Shown here: in pieces, positions 650 through 52,432 of the stretch
Layout: every line of letters starts with the position of its first letter
How positions within the stretch are numbered: position 1 is the first letter of the stretch
NCBI RefSeq assembly: GCF_002571385.2
Contig: NW_019217799.1
Coordinates: 925,711 to 989,710 of the forward strand
Length of the DNA stretch: 64,000 nt
Reading direction: 5' to 3'
Source: Stylophora pistillata
Taxonomy: Eukaryota
Notes under the pieces: model-generated
What the model was told of the DNA's origin: nothing
Seen by the model: the letters and a program-made list of their open reading frames with translations, nothing else
Database searches by the model: none
Translations under genes and position numbers: made by a program

Positions 650-3600
650 CTGGCCTAGGTTCTCTTCTTGGCCTGGGAGTCATTTCACCTAATCCTGCCT
701 TTGCTACTATGGTAACCACATTCTCTCTAGCCGGTGTGATTGGTTACAAGGTTGTTTGGGGTGTGACACCTGCACTGCACTCCCCCCTGATGTCTGTCAC
801 TAATGCTATATCAGGTATCACAGCTGCAGGAGGGTTGGTGCTAATGGGTGGAGGGGTGTTACCTAACAACACTGCAACCTCCCTTGCTGCAATGGCAACT
901 TTGGTGTCCAGTATAAACATCACGGGTGGATTTATCATCACTAAGCGCATGTTGGATATGTTTAGGAGGCCAGGTATGAATGCTTCACAGATTTACTAAA
1001 AGCATGAGATACTTTTGTTTTGTGACATGTAGGCAGCTGTAAGAATGCATCAGCACTGCACTGAAAGTTCTTTTATCCTTTTTTTCTTTTTTTTCATCAC
1101 TGTGATGATCTTTTCTTTTTTAAAAATCTTTCCTCTGCAGCTCAAATTTGATTTTAAAATATTTTCATCAATACGGTGAAAGTTGATTTGGGAATTAGCT
1201 AACTAGCTTTGAAGTCGACTTAGCCCAGGACTGTATCAGAGAGAACCCAGTCTCGAATGCTATTAACTGACCAAAATTTACCTCTCAGTGGGCTACACCA
1301 GTTCACAATAATCCAGTTGTATCTGTATAAAACTATTGATAAACATACATGTACCATAGATGGTAAGACAGTACATTTTTCGCAAAGATGACCCTCCTGA
1401 ATACACCTACCTGTATGCCATTCCTGGGGCAGCTGTTCTTGGTGGTTATGCTGCGGGTAAGATGGCTGGGTATCCTGATATCGATCAGATGGCATACCTG
1501 GCTTCCTCTCTGTGCTGTGTTGGTGCTCTTGGAGGCCTCTCCACTCAGACTACGGCCAGACAAGGAAATGCTCTTGGTATGTTTATTTATTTATTTATTT
1601 ATTTACAAGATTTGCCAACAGGCAGGGACACCGCAACAGCTTTGCGCCAATCACTGCGGGCTCAGTAACCCACCCATCCCACCCCAGGGGAGGACATCCA
1701 TCACACAGTAATCTCGTGCGTGGGAAATTAACGTCTCCCACCCCTAACGCTGCAGGAACGGGACCTCCATTTATGATTATTCTTGTACAATACCTTGCAG
1801 AAGTGAGGTGAAAGTTCCTTGAAACTCAAAACACGATATTCGATTGTCGAAATGCTCGAAGATCGAGGCTCGAGGCAAGAAAACAAGAGAAGAAAACAAA
1901 GAACAACAACAACAACAACCTTTATTTATTCTAATTTCTAATGACTATTTTAACAAATTGGACATGCCTACAGGTAGCTAGCTAATCTAGGTGGGTCATG
2001 TCTTAACTAAGAAAAAAAAGTTAGTATACAAGTTCACGGAAATCTGGAAATTAATTAGAGAGAATAAGTATACAGGTTTACAGAAATCAGGAAGTTAAAT
2101 AAAAAGAGTAGGTATAAAAACAAAGATACTACAAAAATAAAAAAATAGTACAATTAAGGCTATACTTGTTATTCTAGAAATACATTAAAAACCTTAAGAA
2201 AATTTGACCTTTTAACTGATGTTTCGTATGTCGAGATAGGAGTCTTCCGAAGACAGAATATTGAAAAGTACTCTTTTAATTTTTCTCTTAGAGTCGTATT
2301 TTGAGAGATTCCTTCATGTAAGAGGCATCTCGTTCGAAATTTTTGTTCCAAGAAAAGTTTAATTTATTTAGCTCCCGGCACTGGACTGTGGTTCTTAGGG
2401 AGAGTTGTATGGTTAAGTGCAGCCTTTGTACCGGTGAAACCGGTCTTTGATAAAGAAGAACTGGATGCAAAGAAGAAAGAGACTGTTTCATTAACTTTCC
2501 AGCGCTTTGATTGTACCTCTCCCATTTTAGGCTGTATTGTTTGAGCAGCAATACTTTATATTAGGAATTACATGTAGAGTCTTTATGAAAACTTTTCTCC
2601 TATTGGCCTTGACTGTAAACGTTTAGCCAGTGTCGGTAATTGCACATCTTCAGTTTGATAGTATCTAATTCAGTATTTATTGATTGTTTACAGGTATTAT
2701 CGGTATAGGTACTGGTATGACAGCCACCATGGGTGCTTTGGCACCTTCCCATGATGTGCTGACACAGATGGGTGCTATGATGGGTGTGGGTGGCACCATT
2801 GGGGCCATTATCTCTAGCCGCATTGCTGTTAGCGATCTCCCGCAGCTGGTTGCGGCATTCCACAGTTTTGTTGGCTTGGCTGCAGTTCTTACCGCCATTG
2901 CTAAGTACTTAGCTGATGTGGACCTTTTTGCCGACGATCCTTCAGGGAATGTCCATAAAGCAGCTATCTTTCTCGGCACCTATATTGGTGGGGTGACGTT
3001 CACGGGGTCTCTGGTGGCATTTGGCAAGCTTCATGGGCTGCTTGACTCCAAGGCATTGAATTTACCACTAAAAAACCAACTAAATATCGCCATGGCATTG
3101 GCAAATGTTGCAGCTATGGGCTGGTATATGGGTACCGACAGTGCTGCAGTCGGAATACCAATGCTGGGTTAGTAGGTTTGAATTTTTTTTTTATGTCACA
3201 GTTTATCTTTTTCGCAAGGTGTGTCTTAAGCACGACTGTCTGTTTGGTTATATCTGTAACTTATGGCACAAAACACCTGTTTGTAGGTTGAACTTTACTT
3301 GACCATGTAGTATAAAGGCGTTTCTTTGTCACAGCTGCTAATACGCTTTAGATACTTTATGCCTTTGACCCCCTAACATGAGTATGCATATTCTCCATAC
3401 TGTTGTCTGTACATTTCCTAAGGTGCTGACAAGGAGAATTTGTCTAAAGAGCTTCTTTAGTTGGTGATCATTTCATTTATTCTCATAACCTTAGATTCTT
3501 GTTAGGGGTCAAGGAACTGCGCCCTCCTTAAGTTTACCATGTGTTGTGAATACATGTACCTCACTCCACTTAAAAAAAAATTTATTTTGTTTTTTTAATT

Positions 3601-6600
3601 TATATTGGTTTACTCTAGTTTCCCTCGTCGACCAAGAATGGAAAAAAACCATTTTTGAAAGGCAAATTGATATCATAGAGCCGTTAAGGGTCCTAAGCAT
3701 GATGCAGAACATGTTTATCAATTATCCTGATTAGTGTTTGCTTGTGAACTGTAGGTACTACGGCCGCGCTGTCCTCCATCATGGGTGTGCACATGACAGC
3801 ATCGATTGGCGGAGCAGACATGCCTGTGGTTATCACTGTCCTTAACAGCTACAGTGGCTGGGCCCTCTGTGCAGAAGGGTTCATGTTGAACAACGATTTG
3901 CTCACCATCGTGGGAGCCCTTGTGGGATTCTCTGGAGGAATCTTGTCGTATATCATGTGCAAGGCTATGAATCGCTCCTTATCTAATGTTCTGTTTGGTG
4001 GTTACGGAACATTGTCTACTGGTAAGTCTGCGCAGTTTTATCGATATTGTTCTCGTTGACCTTAAAGTGCCGTTAACTGCCGCTTATAACCTCCTGTAAA
4101 CAAAAAAATTACATCCGATTGTAGGGCCCCCCACTCCCCCCTCGATGTAAGCCCATCATCTAGGTTTTCTTGTTTTTAGCGTACTACTTCAAACAACATA
4201 TTTAAATTAGTGCAGGACAGGTTTGTTCGTGTTGTTGGCTTTAATTCTGTTCCAAATGTATTGTCATGAATTCGTTTTATTGTGACATTTTGAAGCTTCA
4301 TTAAAAACCAGTGAATGCTTAACCTATTTTCACCAGCACTTCTATGACTCGTTTAGAAGCGTTTTATTTTTATATTCCGCATATAAGCCTATCCATTTTA
4401 TAAGCCCTCCTAAAACCCCTTTCGAAGATGCACAAGCGACAGTTCACAGTACTCGCTGTGTATAGTTTAAAAGTAAACCTTGTAGCGGGCTACAAGAGAA
4501 CTCTTATACTCTCTTCTAACGCAAAATTAAAGGTTCGTACGGCATGTACATATATGACACACGTTGTTGTATTGGCGAAAAAGGACTCACTCTAACACGC
4601 AAAAAAATTCGTATCCTGTTTACTCCGCAACGCGTATATTACGGCGAACTATGTCAGAACAGTGATCAAACTACTCCTCCCCCAATCATCTTGGCGAAAA
4701 GTTCTTACAGCCAGGTAGGTATCAGCGAGGCTATAATCAACAAAGAAGGGTTTGGGAAGAAAACGCTTAGTCAAAGATGCATCTCGGTATTTGCGCGTAC
4801 TTTGTTGAAGTGTCTCAAGCCAAGAAAGTTTTTGTCATTTCAATTTCCGGTGTTCGATTTGTGTAGAGGAAGCTCCTTTACTTTAAACTGAATCTGAAAT
4901 TATTTTTATCTGCTACTTTGCAAGACGTGAAGTTTGTGCTCCTCGAGGTTGCGAAATGCAAATAAAGTTGTGATAATTACGAACTTCATGTTCATTGATC
5001 GGGAGACTTTTCGAAGAGTTAAGTAAAGCAATGACCCTCGTGGGTGTGCTGCAATTTAAGCAACTCGATCGGCAATTGCTTAAATCGCGGCTCGCTTGCG
5101 AGGATCATTGCCTTACTTGATTTTCATCTGAAGGCAAAAGGGAATTTATTTCGATAAGAACTTATCGAAGAGTGTAATCAAGAAAAACTTGTCCGAAAAT
5201 AACCTAAATTTGACGAAACATCAAGATTTCTTAGTCTCAAAATCGTAGTTCTTTTTTTCTTGGTTACTTTACCAAATTCGAAATGTAAGCTCATTTACAC
5301 TCGATAATTTGGTTAAAGAGCGAAGGCTAACGCTCAAAACATCAGGTTTAGAATCTGTTAACGCTGGCCAATTTACATTATCAAGTTGATAAACCAAATA
5401 ATCATGTATTACCCCACCGACGCAGCAACAGTTTGTTTGGAAACAACCCACCCCCCACTCCCTTACTTATTTGCGCTCGGTTGAGCGAGGCGAGTAAGAA
5501 CGTCAGGGTATTATCCTCACTTTCCCCATTTGCATAGAACTGCACGATTTCAAGGGTGCAGTGGACACGTTGTTAAAGCGTTATTAATGAAAGATTTTGA
5601 AACATAGGTTTAGGTTATTTATTGAGAAAGAAGGACAACGGTTGGCCAAACATGTGAAATTCTAACTCACTGATTCGATTATCGGGTAAAGGTAGGAACA
5701 ATTACTGCACCAGAAAACCTGTATATGAACACGAGACAGTACTATCCTTAAACAGATTGTCTTGAAGTCACCCGAACATGTCCGATGATGTCGATGCAAC
5801 ATCCGATAAAAGGAGATGGCTAACAGTTTCTTCGGCCACCTTTTCCACTACACTTTTCCGCCGTCCGCTTTCTTCTCCTTCCGTGAGTGTTATCGCTCTG
5901 CACACATGCAACGCTGTTAGCCCGCCTGGTCCTCTTCCTTGTATCGTCTCCTCGCCCCGCACCGGAAGTTCCTTCGGATGGAAGTTTCGTCTTCTTTTGA
6001 ACCACGACTGGACCAACCATGGCAGACGCAGAATCACCTGAGCGCTTAGAAAGTCTAGTCGAGTGACGCCGCCTCAACACGGTCGGCTCGACAACAACGT
6101 CGGGATTTCCTCGGTAAAAGTCGGCACTGTACGATCTGTGGGTGAATTGTTGTCTTGATTGGCCAGTATTTGGAACTTGAATAATCGGAGGATCGAGCGT
6201 TGGTTTGATAAAGAATTGCGATGCAGCGCTTTGTCCGCCGGTGGCAATGTCGTTGTGAAACGATTCGTCAAAAAGAAATTGGAGCGAGGATTTTTCGCCG
6301 AAGTCAGTTTCGTCGGTTTTCATAGAGCAGTCAGAGATATCTTTGCTTTCGGTTTTATTCGGCTGAACTTCAGCGAAGAGTATTTCAAGCGATGACTTGT
6401 CGCTTGCATTTGATTGTTTCTCAGCGAACAAAAACCCATGAGAAGTTTTTTCATTCAGATATGTATTTTCAGTGCGTGAGGAACATCCCGGCGCTGCAGA
6501 AGTATCTTTAGCATTGTCACTGAATTGCGATTCCTTGGCCTCAGGCAAGGTTTGAAGAGACGGAACACGTCTACCCTCTTGTGCAAACTCGCCATGGTTC

Positions 6601-8854
6601 GGTATTTCTTCAATCAATACCCAATCGTCTTCTATAACCTTGGAGTCGTCGAACACCTGATCGCTGTTCACACCCTCTGGGTTTCCCTCCGACGATCCCC
6701 AAACAAGGCTGGAGAAAGAAGAAAACATCACTTCAAGGAGAATTCATTTGTTGTTAGAATCAACGGCGAATCATTTCACACTTAATTGTGACCCAAATGT
6801 ACGCCTACTATTATGACGCAAATCTTCTAACGAGCCACCGATTATTAGAGACTTTGTTCTAATTGCTTAATGGATACCATTCTTCATTGCCACGATTATT
6901 CTTATGTCACTGAACCAACTATTTATAATAAGCAAGGTCTTTTAACGCTGTCGCATTTTCACTTCAGTGAATCCCACAACCTATGCGCAAAATGTCTCAA
7001 TGCAGTGTACTGTTAATAGGCTTTATTTTCCTCGGATTGTTGAATTAAGTTTTCAGTTTTGAAACTGCGGCGGTGAAAACATTTAAAACATCATGAATTA
7101 CCAAGTCCTTAACGTGTAATTCTCGTACCGCGCGCGCTTAATCGTCGATATTTATTTGGTTACGTAACAAACTGGTCAAACCGGAATATCACTTGAAAAA
7201 ACGCGCGCGCTTGTTACTAACTCTCAGCGACTAGCGGTACTTAGTTTTTACCTCAAATCGTCATCGATAGCCTCCGGCTTGGAGACGTTTGAACCTCTCC
7301 CTTTGGTTTCTGCGTTGAAGGAATTCTCTGACCTATTTATTGTTTTCTGTTGTAATAGGGACAGGAGAAAGGGAGAAGATCACTGGAACTCACACAGAGA
7401 TTAACGCAGAAGGCGCTGTGGAAATGCTGACATCTTCTAAGAATGTAATCATCACACCGGGATACGGACTGGCCGTGGCGAAGGCGCAGTACGCTATCGC
7501 TGACATGGTTAAAGAGCTTAAACAAAGGGGACTCAACGTACGCTTCGGGATCCATCCCGTCGCGGGACGTATGCCGGGACAGCTGAACGTATTACTGGGT
7601 GAGCCAACTTAAGTTTCGTGGAAACAGTTTTCTTTTACAGCGGTCCAAACATAATGGATGAAAGAAAACGTTTGTGAGAAAATCTACAATCTGAGGAGCT
7701 TTATCTCCTTTACTTTTGAGCGCTTTTAGTAGGGAATGGACTCAACGCTCGGAAGATTTCTTCGTTTGTAAAGATAGTCTGCCATCAACTTCTCATTTTT
7801 CTCGCGCGAGTATGTAGCCTTATTGCTATTAGCAATTCAGTCTTATTTGAGCAGTTGAAATAATGAAGAGATGATTTTTACTTCTTCAACAGCAGAAATT
7901 AAGAGCTTGAAAACTTCATGCCCAAAACAAGTTAGTCAGGTTTACGTTCAATGCCTCCGATTCACTCTTCTCGAAGTAGCGGGGTAAAAATCTTAATATT
8001 TTTTAATTAATAATTTAATTATAACACGTGTCAATTCATCTTTGAAGCTGAGGCTGGAGTACCATATGACGTCGTATTAGAAATGGACGAAATTAATGAA
8101 GACTTTCCTGAAACTGACCTTGCTCTGGTAATCGGTGCGAACGATACAGTCAACTCCGCTGCCCAAGACGATCCCAACTCTGTGATTGCGGGTATGCCTG
8201 TTCTGGAAGTTTGGAAAGCAAAGCAGGCAAGTTGCTTACAGAGTTTTGTATATTTGACTTTTTTTACTAGATATGTGATTAAACAAACCGTTTATGCCGT
8301 GTCTACGTAAGGTTTCGAGAATGGCCGGGCAAATTATTTTGTCAATGTTTTCTTGCTAAGCGCGGCATATGAAGCGAAGTTTTCTCACTTTCAGGTTTTG
8401 TTTTGGTCGTGAAGATCTTCCGAAGCTAAAAACGAGTTTCCCTGAAAGATTTGCGTTGTTTTCTCTTGCGAGATCCCAGTACAAATTGTCGTCACTGAAT
8501 GAACAAACCAGCGAAGATTTTAAACACCAAGTAACCTTATTACTCTATTGACAGGGGTGATGGAAAATAATTGGTATATTTTTACTCAACACCCCTTCTA
8601 AGTGAGACACGAATACTCGAATAAGCCTAGTGTATGGTATAAGCCTAGTTCAGTGCTACTGTAAAACTTTGAAATTAAGAACCGAATTCGTTTCTGATTG
8701 ACAGGTGATCGTGATGAAGCGCACGCTGGGCACTGGGTACGCAGACGTGGATAACCCAGTGTTCTACAAACCCAACACTTGCATGCTCTTGGGTGACGCT
8801 AAAACCATGTGTGATGCTCTTCTAAACAAGGTTAAGGAACACTACGGCAGTTAA
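650..8854 (+). CDS. NNT: Mitochondrial NAD(P) transhydrogenase, 3' part (domains II and III); 5' exons lie upstream of the window
   Basis: Exons 650-973, 1388-1576, 2694-3167, 3755-4021, 7359-7598, 8048-8226, 8705-8854 join in phase. Hallmark motifs: [113 protein letters not shown]; ends KEHYGS*. Confidence 0.97.
1582..1773 (-). mobile_element. 5'-truncated SINE (3' part of the family at 16383 and 18374) with (TAAA)n tail
   Basis: 1670-1773 is the reverse complement of about 16555-16660 and 18855-18960; (ttta)n at 1582-1604. Confidence 0.75.
1903..2560 (-). mobile_element. Probable 3' fragment of a LINE with simple-repeat tail
   Basis: (caa)n-ctttattt tail followed by broken ORF-like sequence; no diagnostic domain seen. 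Confidence 0.35.
3362..3510 (+). repeat. Interspersed repeat also present at about 46100-46320
   Basis: Shared ccc(t)aacat..gtatgcatattctcc...catttcc...agagcttct.tagttggtgatcattt. Confidence 0.7.
5317..5450 (+). mobile_element. Degenerate Penelope-like element terminus
   Basis: ggctaacgctcaaaac..ggccaattta..cccaccgacgcagc matches 52292-52400. Confidence 0.65.
5820..6731 (-). CDS. Intronless nested antisense gene, TP53INP1/TP53INP2 (DOR)-like autophagy adaptor, 303 aa
   Basis: Uninterrupted 912-nt ORF inside NNT intron 4022-7358. N-terminus [12 protein letters not shown]...EDDWVLIE resembles the TP53INP/DOR start and acidic W-x-x-I LIR; basic C-terminus. TATA-like TATAAATAG at 6919-6927 (-) and AATAAA at 5618-5623 (-). 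Confidence 0.7.
   Translation of the reverse strand: MMFSSFSSLVWGSSEGNPEGVNSDQVFDDSKVIEDDWVLIEEIPNHGEFAQEGRRVPSLQTLPEAKESQFSDNAKDTSAAPGCSSRTENTYLNEKTSHGFLFAEKQSNASDKSSLEILFAEVQPNKTESKDISDCSMKTDETDFGEKSSLQFLFDESFHNDIATGGQSAASQFFIKPTLDPPIIQVPNTGQSRQQFTHRSYSADFYRGNPDVVVEPTVLRRRHSTRLSKRSGDSASAMVGPVVVQKKTKLPSEGTSGAGRGDDTRKRTRRANSVACVQSDNTHGRRRKRTAEKCSGKGGRRNC
6919..6927 (-). promoter_or_regulatory. TATA-like box of the nested gene
   Basis: TATAAATAG on the minus strand about 190 nt upstream of the ATG at 6731, next to a CpG-rich stretch. Confidence 0.4.
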
Positions 8855-51238: not shown

Positions 51239-51665
51239 NNNNNNNNNNNNNNNNNNNNNNNNNNNNNNNNNNNNNNNNNNNNNNNNNNNNNNNNNNNNNN
51301 NNNNNNNNNNNNNNNNNNNNNNNNNNNNNNNNNNNNNNNNNNNNNNNNNNNNNNNNNNNNNNNNNNNNNNNNNNNNNNNNNNNNNNNNNNNNNNNNNNNN
51401 NNNNNNNNNNNNNNNNNNNNNNNNNNNNNNNNNNNNNNNNNNNNNNNNNNNNNNNNNNNNNNNNNNNNNNNNNNNNNNNNNNNNNNNNNNNNNNNNNNNN
51501 NNNNNNNNNNNNNNNNNNNNNNNNNNNNNNNNNNNNNNNNNNNNNNNNNNNNNNNNNNNNNNNNNNNNNNNNNNNNNNNNNNNNNNNNNNNNNNNNNNNN
51601 NNNNNNNNNNNNNNNNNNNNNNNNNNNNNNNNNNNNNNNNNNNNNNNNNNNNNNNNNNNNNNNNN
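51239..51665. other. Assembly gap (N run)
   Basis: 427 Ns. Confidence 1.
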
Positions 51666-52432
51666 GCACTATCTTTTCGCAGCCTCCGCTCATTTCATTC
51701 AAACGCGACAAAAACTTAGGCAATTTTTTGGTCAGAAGTTCTTTTCAGACTAATGAGCAACCAGGCACTTTTAAATGCGCTCGTGCACGATGCAAAACGT
51801 GTCCTTTCATTCACAACACTGATAAAATATCGGGACCTAAACGATCCATTAAGATCACCGATCACTTCACGTGCACCTCCGCTAATGTAATCTATTGCAT
51901 AACTTGCACTTATTGCAAAAAGATATACATCGGCGAAACAGGCAGAAGACTAGGTGACCGATTCCGAGAACACCTTCGAGACGTGGAAAGGAATGACAAG
52001 GACACATCGAAACCAGTCGCTAGACATTTTTAATTTACCCAATCATTCTAAGCAACATATGGCAATCTGCGGTCTTTCCTTGCACTTAGGTGGCACGGAA
52101 AGCCGTAAAAATCTTGAACAAAAGCTCATCTTTCAAACCGGCAGTCTAAATCCCACAGGGATCAATGAACGCTTTTCATTCCACTAATTTATTCATGTTT
52201 TTCTCGTTGCCATGCACCCACCAATAACGTAGCTCCATTTTCTGCCTTTAAAAGCACACACAACCCACAATTCCTCTATTCGCTCCGACGAAGGGCTAAC
52301 GCTCGAAACGTCAGCTTTTGTAATCATTACGGTGGCCAATTTACCATTTCAACTTTGTTGATATATCCAAATTATTTCGTTACTCCCACCGACGCAGCTC
52401 CAAACAGTTTCTTTCGAAACTATCAGCCTTTA
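51666..52432 (+). mobile_element. 3' end of a Penelope-like element (GIY-YIG endonuclease + terminal repeat)
   Basis: C..RCKTCP, CTSANVIYCITC..CKKIYIGETGRRLGDRFREH, VARHF(fs)NLPNHS, LEQKLIFQ.G.L.P.GIN; follows the N gap. Confidence 0.92.
52282..52315 (+). ncRNA. Minimal hammerhead ribozyme motif, core variant CCGACGA
   Basis: GCT-CCGACGA-A-GGGC(TAAC)GCTC-GAAA-CG-TC-AGC in the PLE terminus; U-to-C change relative to the CUGANGA consensus. Confidence 0.55.

Follow-up and report, generated by a model that had tools for sequence, protein, structure and literature searches.

The window analysed here is the whole 64,000-nt stretch of the Stylophora pistillata genome taken from RefSeq assembly GCF_002571385.2 (contig NW_019217799.1, positions 925,711 to 989,710 of the forward strand). 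An intron of the plus-strand gene NNT, which encodes the mitochondrial NAD(P) transhydrogenase, contains, on the minus strand, a gene whose protein is related at both ends to the DOR/TP53INP family of autophagy regulators. A first-pass annotation, made from the sequence alone, had proposed a complete antisense TP53INP/DOR-like gene at this place, and we confirmed that the antisense gene is expressed, conserved and nested in NNT. Its features, in window positions, are as follows.

3755..4021, plus strand: NNT exon upstream of the host intron (Pfam PNTB, E=3e-39; RNA joints)
4022..7358, plus strand: NNT host intron of 3337 nt, GT..AG (RNA joints)
7359..7598, plus strand: NNT exon downstream of the host intron (Pfam PNTB, E=2.4e-32; RNA joints)
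5820..6728, minus strand: coding sequence of 302 aa, a single coding exon in the main transcript (open frame, collinear RNA contigs, homologs, ratio of non-synonymous to synonymous substitution, dN/dS)
6606..6728, minus strand: DOR-type N-terminus and region 1, aa 1-41 (hhalign to cnidarian canonical DOR N-termini)
6612..6632, minus strand: acidic motif EDDWVLI of the LC3-interacting region (LIR) type, aa 33-39, predicted to bind ATG8 (aligns with the canonical DOR LIR)
6540..6560, minus strand: first S-L-x-x-L repeat, aa 57-63, fitting the pattern LxxLxE
6264..6443, minus strand: acidic Ser-rich middle with further K-S-S-L-x-x-L-F repeats at aa 96-103 (degenerate), 112-120 and 147-155, occupying the place of region 2
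5823..5954, minus strand: basic C-terminal tail, aa 259-302, with an RRRKR cluster (predicted nuclear localization signal, NLS) and the end GGRRNC, a homolog of the tail that closes with GKRGC in cnidarian DOR
5605..5623, minus strand: AATAAA as poly(A) signal (5623-5618), with cleavage near 5605 (contig ends at 5605 in runs X8 and X9 and at 5608 in X12; poly-T in X10)
6729..6805, minus strand: main 5′ untranslated region (UTR), apparent 5′ end at about 6780-6805 (contig ends in X7, X8, X10 and X12; contigs cannot prove a start)
6811..6818, minus strand: conserved CGTCATAA element, candidate promoter element
6920..6927, minus strand: TATA-like box TATAAATA, present in the window; the main contig ends lie about 120 nt below it
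6709..7251, minus strand: rare GT-AG intron (joint 6708/7252, CT..AC ends; X5 only, one of eight runs)

The minus-strand frame 5820-6731, initially described as an intronless open reading frame (ORF) of 303 codons, is indeed open, but its codon at 6731 is GTG and the first ATG lies at 6728, so that the protein has 302 aa; likewise, the absence of introns holds for the main transcript but not for the X5 form. Homologs of 290-297 aa that start with 'MWG' were considered as a splice isoform; more simply, their genes would have been called from the GTG/Val codon. An ORF of 302 codons was reached in none of 1000 dinucleotide shuffles of the 3337-nt host intron, in which the longest ORF averaged 89 codons with a maximum of 214. 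The AlphaFold model of the protein is disordered and too poor to use as a structure (mean predicted local distance difference test, pLDDT, 47; predicted template modelling score, pTM, 0.11), and a search of PDB with its sequence gave 0 hits. Motifs were counted in the 40 full-length members of the nested family (P0002-P0039, P0140 and P0143), leaving out the partial or broken P0040-P0043, P0141 and P0142. The acidic LIR-type motif of the first-pass annotation was found at residues 33-39, and its pattern [DE][DEG]WxxV/I is present in 40/40 members. The first repeat has E at its last position in 39/40, although LxxLxE, the pattern of PP2A-B56 docking, appears somewhere in 29% of query shuffles. 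Three to four copies of S-L-x-x-L-F lie in the middle of 36/40 members; in a self-repeat test of seven proteins, five were exceeded by at most 4 of 300 shuffles and the query by 13 of 300. GKGGRRNC forms the terminal residues in 35/40, and the basic cluster is found in 38/40.

Most of the stretch is contained in 20 of the 24 sequencing runs listed, eight of these being recorded as RNA; runs X21-X24 were not counted as evidence. Eight runs were aligned to the window, all as assembled contigs and none as raw reads, with five judged to be RNA by an automatic guess. A polyadenylated minus-strand transcript spans about 6800 to 5605: in X10, one contig covers 5605-6798, and a loose T run before 5605 is the minus-strand poly(A) tail, 13 nt beyond the AATAAA that had been pointed out at 5618-5623. 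Other contigs over the gene cover 5608-6797 (X12), 5605-6780 (X8) and 5605-6950 (X9). The AATAAA lies 172-197 nt past the stop in the window and in 5/5 related loci. In X1, X5 and X7, low cover is found over other parts of the intron too, consistent with NNT pre-mRNA, and transcripts of the nested gene and of NNT both occur in the same bulk samples. Contig depth was dropped as a gauge of expression or of anti-correlation with NNT because contigs cannot rank genes.

Contigs of four runs stop at 6780-6805, while those of X9 and X3 extend farther 5′, to 6950 and 6991. Both the window and all four related loci with enough upstream sequence (L005, L007, L008 and L009, of which L007 and L008 are near-identical) have the CGTCATAA element at -88 to -90 from the ATG; the upstream sequence of L006 was too short to score. 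It totals eight copies in 106,227 nt, and we take it to be an element like the cAMP response element (CRE), of bZIP type. The TATA-like box, put at 6919-6927 and assigned to the gene at first, does exist (TATAAATA at 6927-6920), but it is probably not the main promoter: TATA[AT]A was not found upstream of the gene in 4/4 related loci with long upstream sequence, and the main contig ends fall well below it. The longer X9 and X3 contigs weigh against discounting it. Two short upstream ORFs (uORFs) begin in the window's 5′ UTR with ATG at 6774 and 6747; the window and 5/5 related loci have a short uORF at -40 to -46, and five of these six sequences another at -17 or -19. Such uORFs are linked to stress translation. 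From its upstream sequence, we tentatively regard the nested gene as a candidate for stress regulation.

The acceptor of the rare X5 intron falls within codons 1-7, and its upstream exon has no in-frame ATG before the next stop. Since the spliced form loses the ATG without in-frame replacement, it is a rare and probably non-coding form. Reading it as an N-terminal extension was rejected for the same lack of an in-frame ATG, its absence from the other seven runs, and related loci without matching upstream sequence (blastn). The first codons of the ORF (6709-6728) double as polypyrimidine tract and splice acceptor of this form.

That the ORF lies wholly within the NNT intron was borne out by the RNA contigs: the intron is spliced out in 4/4 runs of one set, and in 4/4 of another, loose ends at 7358 continue into sequence of the upstream exon. 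In five of eight metagenome loci (L006-L010), NNT exons accompany the nested gene, invariably on the other strand and on the side where each is expected, and L009 and L010 contain both flanking exons; the three loci without an NNT exon are only 1.3-2.0 kb long. The nested gene is therefore antisense to NNT in 5/5 loci that reach an NNT exon, and its own opposite-strand transcript, wholly inside a spliced host intron, makes it a conserved nested antisense gene. The NNT sequence at L010:163-12062 is a faster-evolving copy (five exons 74-91% identical to those of the window, one 46%); none of the six exon matches read contains a stop, and the nested gene in this copy is broken, with its 5′ part missing and a frame shift near the 3′ end. 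On its sequence, this NNT copy is perhaps a decaying segmental duplicate.

The homolog search returned 42 proteins at E<=1, 38 of them near full length with 51-100% identity, and profile and representative searches added P0140 (42-48%), P0143 (30%) and two fragments. The cluster of P0143 (16 members) is the most divergent; it is without the MFSS..WG start, keeps the LIR and the repeats, and terminates in GGRRGC, nearer to canonical DOR. Its best match in the coral's own genome (G000) is the nested ORF, a single copy there. Among the members listed, at most 40 per cluster, for 20 clusters looked up, the sole descriptive name was 'hypothetical protein', from Acropora cervicornis. No named anemone protein was matched in the homolog searches, which were of limited reach, though the collection includes anemone DORs; no relatives were found in prokaryote genomes, nor in phages, where the 138-nt query was of little use. 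The ORF is under purifying selection: dN/dS (Nei-Gojobori, own script) was 0.136-0.153 between the window and L005-L008 and 0.17-0.32 among related loci, with saturation against L009, and the proportion of non-synonymous differences (pN) in the middle, aa 111-160, was 0.13-0.15. So far, the paralog has been seen only in coral-type sequences.

The genome also holds a separate, canonical DOR gene, the intron-containing candidate parent. A search with PF14839 found it on another contig (G000:C320; 102 bits, cut-off 25). An intron of 274 nt separates its 130-nt coding exon, which ends past the LIR, from an exon with region 2; together, the two exons yield 199/200 residues of P0144. Upstream of canonical DOR lie CACGTG and ACGTCA sites (L002:2928-2940, about 2868-2880), presumably an E-box and a CRE-like half site.

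The TP53INP/DOR-like identity given by the first-pass annotation stands for both ends of the nested protein, but the protein fails Pfam DOR, is without region 2 and is a paralog beside the canonical gene. Profiles of the nested family (A3, 20 rows) and of cnidarian canonical DOR (A2, 22 rows) were compared by hhalign, with five mis-started rows dropped in the segment test. N-terminus against N-terminus gave P=98.4% and E=4.6e-15 (reversed control P=2.8%), and C-terminus against C-terminus gave P=95.1% and E=3.1e-8 for whole alignments, or E=4.9e-4 once the segment was cut out of its context. The remaining 14/16 segment pairs stayed at P<1%, as did 15/16 reversed controls (highest 2.8%); the two groups align only at their two ends, collinearly. 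Their starts read MFSSL[TS]SYIWG in anemone DORs and MFSS[FL]S[SN][YL]VWG in the nested family. DOR clusters were the top three matches in the ESM Atlas (0.90, 0.90, 0.89), and a tree built from the two ends, with 39 rows and 89 columns, joins the nested family in one clade (98/98). By tblastx, the host intron matched 20 kb around canonical DOR only at the LIR and at the last codons with the stop, weakly (E=0.093).

Region 2 is absent. Its motifs (TPPxCF ... EHPSMSVY) were found in 0/40 nested members against 118/120 canonical hits, the latter picked by a region-2-containing query, and a region 2 profile matched none of four nested-protein segments. The region-2 helix was considered as the origin of the S-L-x-x-L-F repeats and rejected as unproven, since best-site scores were not above shuffles in 7/7 proteins (p 0.08-0.6); the sum of the top three reached p<0.05 in 1/7. 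Family membership was assessed by PF14839 and by the description of Sancho et al. 2012. The nested protein has the acidic stretch with a W-x-x-L/I/V LIR near the N-terminus (region 1) and, at the sequence level only, the basic C-terminal tail with an NLS. The NLS of DOR is C-terminal according to a passage of PMC12752491, and the intron/exon structure of the family is conserved per a statement in PMC3314686; the main nested transcript has no coding intron, whereas the canonical gene has one. Pfam DOR matched neither the query nor any of seven further nested proteins, with 99 bits for the control P0144. On these grounds the gene is a region-2-less DOR paralog beside canonical DOR rather than the coral's DOR itself, and neither the two-region definition nor that of Pfam admits it as a member.

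We consider it very probable, from the alignment of both ends, that the nested gene is DOR-derived. By analogy with the LIRs of human DOR and TP53INP1, which bind all six LC3/GABARAP proteins tested (as described in part of PMC3314686), the predicted binding of ATG8 by its LIR is likely. The whole account, which we hold with moderate confidence, is of an expressed, conserved second DOR/TP53INP gene on the antisense strand of the NNT intron. It would be a likely retrocopy of canonical DOR in which new leucine repeats take the place of region 2, and its disordered product is predicted to bind ATG8/GABARAP by the N-terminal LIR and to reach the nucleus by means of the basic tail. Several observations weigh against it. 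The HMMER search against Pfam DOR that had been suggested as a check went the other way, with no hit for the query and one of 32 members at E=0.12. About 215/302 residues are without alignment in DOR or the ESM Atlas, which marks its own recognition score as low, and the acidic LIR pattern turns up in 5% of query shuffles. With single sequences, the cnidarian DOR profile gave P0002 10.6 bits where the best of 2000 shuffles reached 10.4, the best members reaching 22. The tree leaves the attachment of the nested clade open, on a long stem, and we claim no order of events from it. Finally, the retrogene hallmark of lost parental introns amounts to one missing coding intron, whose position borders unalignable sequence. 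No genomic poly(A) remnant was seen by eye after AATAAA in the window and four loci, where it is expected to have decayed at such age. On balance, we lean towards an origin by retroposition.

An alternative explanation is that the paralog arose by duplication at the DNA level, with the intron later lost or read through as coding sequence. The unalignable middle starts right at the canonical intron position (after codon 43) and exceeds the canonical middle by about 100 aa; the canonical intron measures 274 nt here. However, internal repeats also account for the extra length, and intron length today says little after saturation. Apart from two matches of 33-36 nt, which cover the LIR and the sequence immediately before it, no flanking DNA is common to the nested gene and the canonical locus, and the nested gene sits inside an unrelated gene on a different contig. 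We judge this origin credible but unlikely.

A second alternative concerns function, namely that the product is a natural competitor of canonical DOR that binds ATG8 through its LIR but, without region 2, damps autophagosome formation. Region 2 is needed for full autophagic and transcriptional activity of human DOR (as given in part of PMC3314686), and it is absent in 40/40 members. However, the new middle is itself conserved (the pN of aa 111-160), which is needless for a pure decoy, and HeLa over-expression differs from coral; a competitor is an improbable reading. Convergence of an unrelated disordered protein on a LIR and a basic tail would explain the failure of Pfam DOR, the recurrence of short motifs by chance and the unrelated middle. 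It is very improbable, as the match runs in order over 41 residues counted from the initiator Met and over the 43 that precede the stop, with other segment pairs and reversed controls near zero. That there is no gene (a chance ORF, a retained NNT intron or a transposon remnant), for which the low cover of X1, X5 and X7 across much of the intron could speak, is already refuted by the shuffles (0/1000), dN/dS far below 1, the minus-strand poly(A) tail, contigs limited to 5605-6800 (X10) or 6950 (X9), and the absence of any transposon family in Pfam.

Under the retrocopy account, an early stony coral would have acquired an mRNA copy of DOR, antisense within its NNT intron, before the sampled lineages split; the copy would have gained its own promoter and had its middle rebuilt through internal repeats. 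By analogy with human DOR, the disordered, DOR-like product may shuttle between the nucleus and autophagic, ATG8-coated membranes. Because region 2 is absent, it would act via other partners or through competition with canonical DOR; the S-L-x-x-L-F repeats could recruit different partners by acidic activation-domain-like contacts, possibly including PP2A-B56, and the conserved CRE-like element and the uORFs may confer a stress response. A bolder version, which we think quite unlikely, sees a private coral autophagy regulator: a DOR retrocopy that kept its ATG8 hook, replaced region 2 by a multivalent leucine-repeat platform and, switched by the CRE-like element and uORFs inside NNT, would tune redox supply against ATG8-dependent autophagy, including the removal of symbionts in bleaching.

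Elsewhere in the window, an interspersed repeat of about 130 bp lies at 3362-3495 in the preceding NNT intron (3281 genome candidates, 86-90% identity among those scored), and because of it the summed depth in RNA contigs comes near 12,000. A tRNA-like match at 13041-13113 on the minus strand (48.9 bits) is the sole Rfam match. Downstream of NNT, astacin metalloprotease exons occupy 15038-19459 on the minus strand (Pfam Astacin, two of three frames scanned), and RING-variant E3 ligase exons, presumably of MARCH type, lie at 32465-33797 on the plus strand (Pfam RINGv). The segments 36747-45461 and 51650-52033 contain decayed reverse-transcriptase elements on both strands, with a GIY-YIG fragment beside an assembly gap. 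In the genome (G000), ATG8 was found as exons only.

Nested antisense genes and retrocopies are ordinary by themselves. The literature searched held no second cnidarian DOR and no NNT-nested gene; subscription journals or coral transcriptome supplements could carry one under a locus tag. By its sequence, the gene is apparently an undescribed variant of a known family. As the nested family is missed by Pfam and almost unnamed, it has likely been overlooked in coral stress datasets. The second coral DOR is a natural deletion of region 2, selected across corals down to about 50% identity (one set at 30%). It offers a natural test of the role of region 2 and is a candidate for a coral-specific partner of ATG8. 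A coral with two DOR genes contrasts with the single DOR gene of invertebrates, with both conserved regions in every member, reported in part of PMC3314686.

Compared with cnidarian DOR/TP53INP2 (Nematostella P0169, Exaiptasia P0172, Orbicella P0148 and the own-genome gene on C320), the nested protein shares the N-terminal MFSS..S..WG, an acidic W-x-x-V/I LIR likewise placed, the tail end G-[KR]-R-x-C and predicted disorder. It differs in being without region 2, in length (about 300 against about 200 aa) and in the S-L-x-x-L-F repeats, and its gene differs in the lack of a coding intron and the nesting in NNT. Intron-nested antisense retrogenes form a general class, with which the coral gene shares a single coding exon, an orientation antisense to the host, its own poly(A) signal and a spliced parent elsewhere; it differs in being old enough that a poly(A) remnant is unseen, and any coupling to the host is putative. 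As in the vertebrate pair TP53INP1/TP53INP2, one genome carries two DOR-family genes through duplication. However, both vertebrate genes have kept regions 1 and 2 as well as their exon structure (as described in part of PMC3314686), whereas the coral duplication is asymmetric and appears to be separate.

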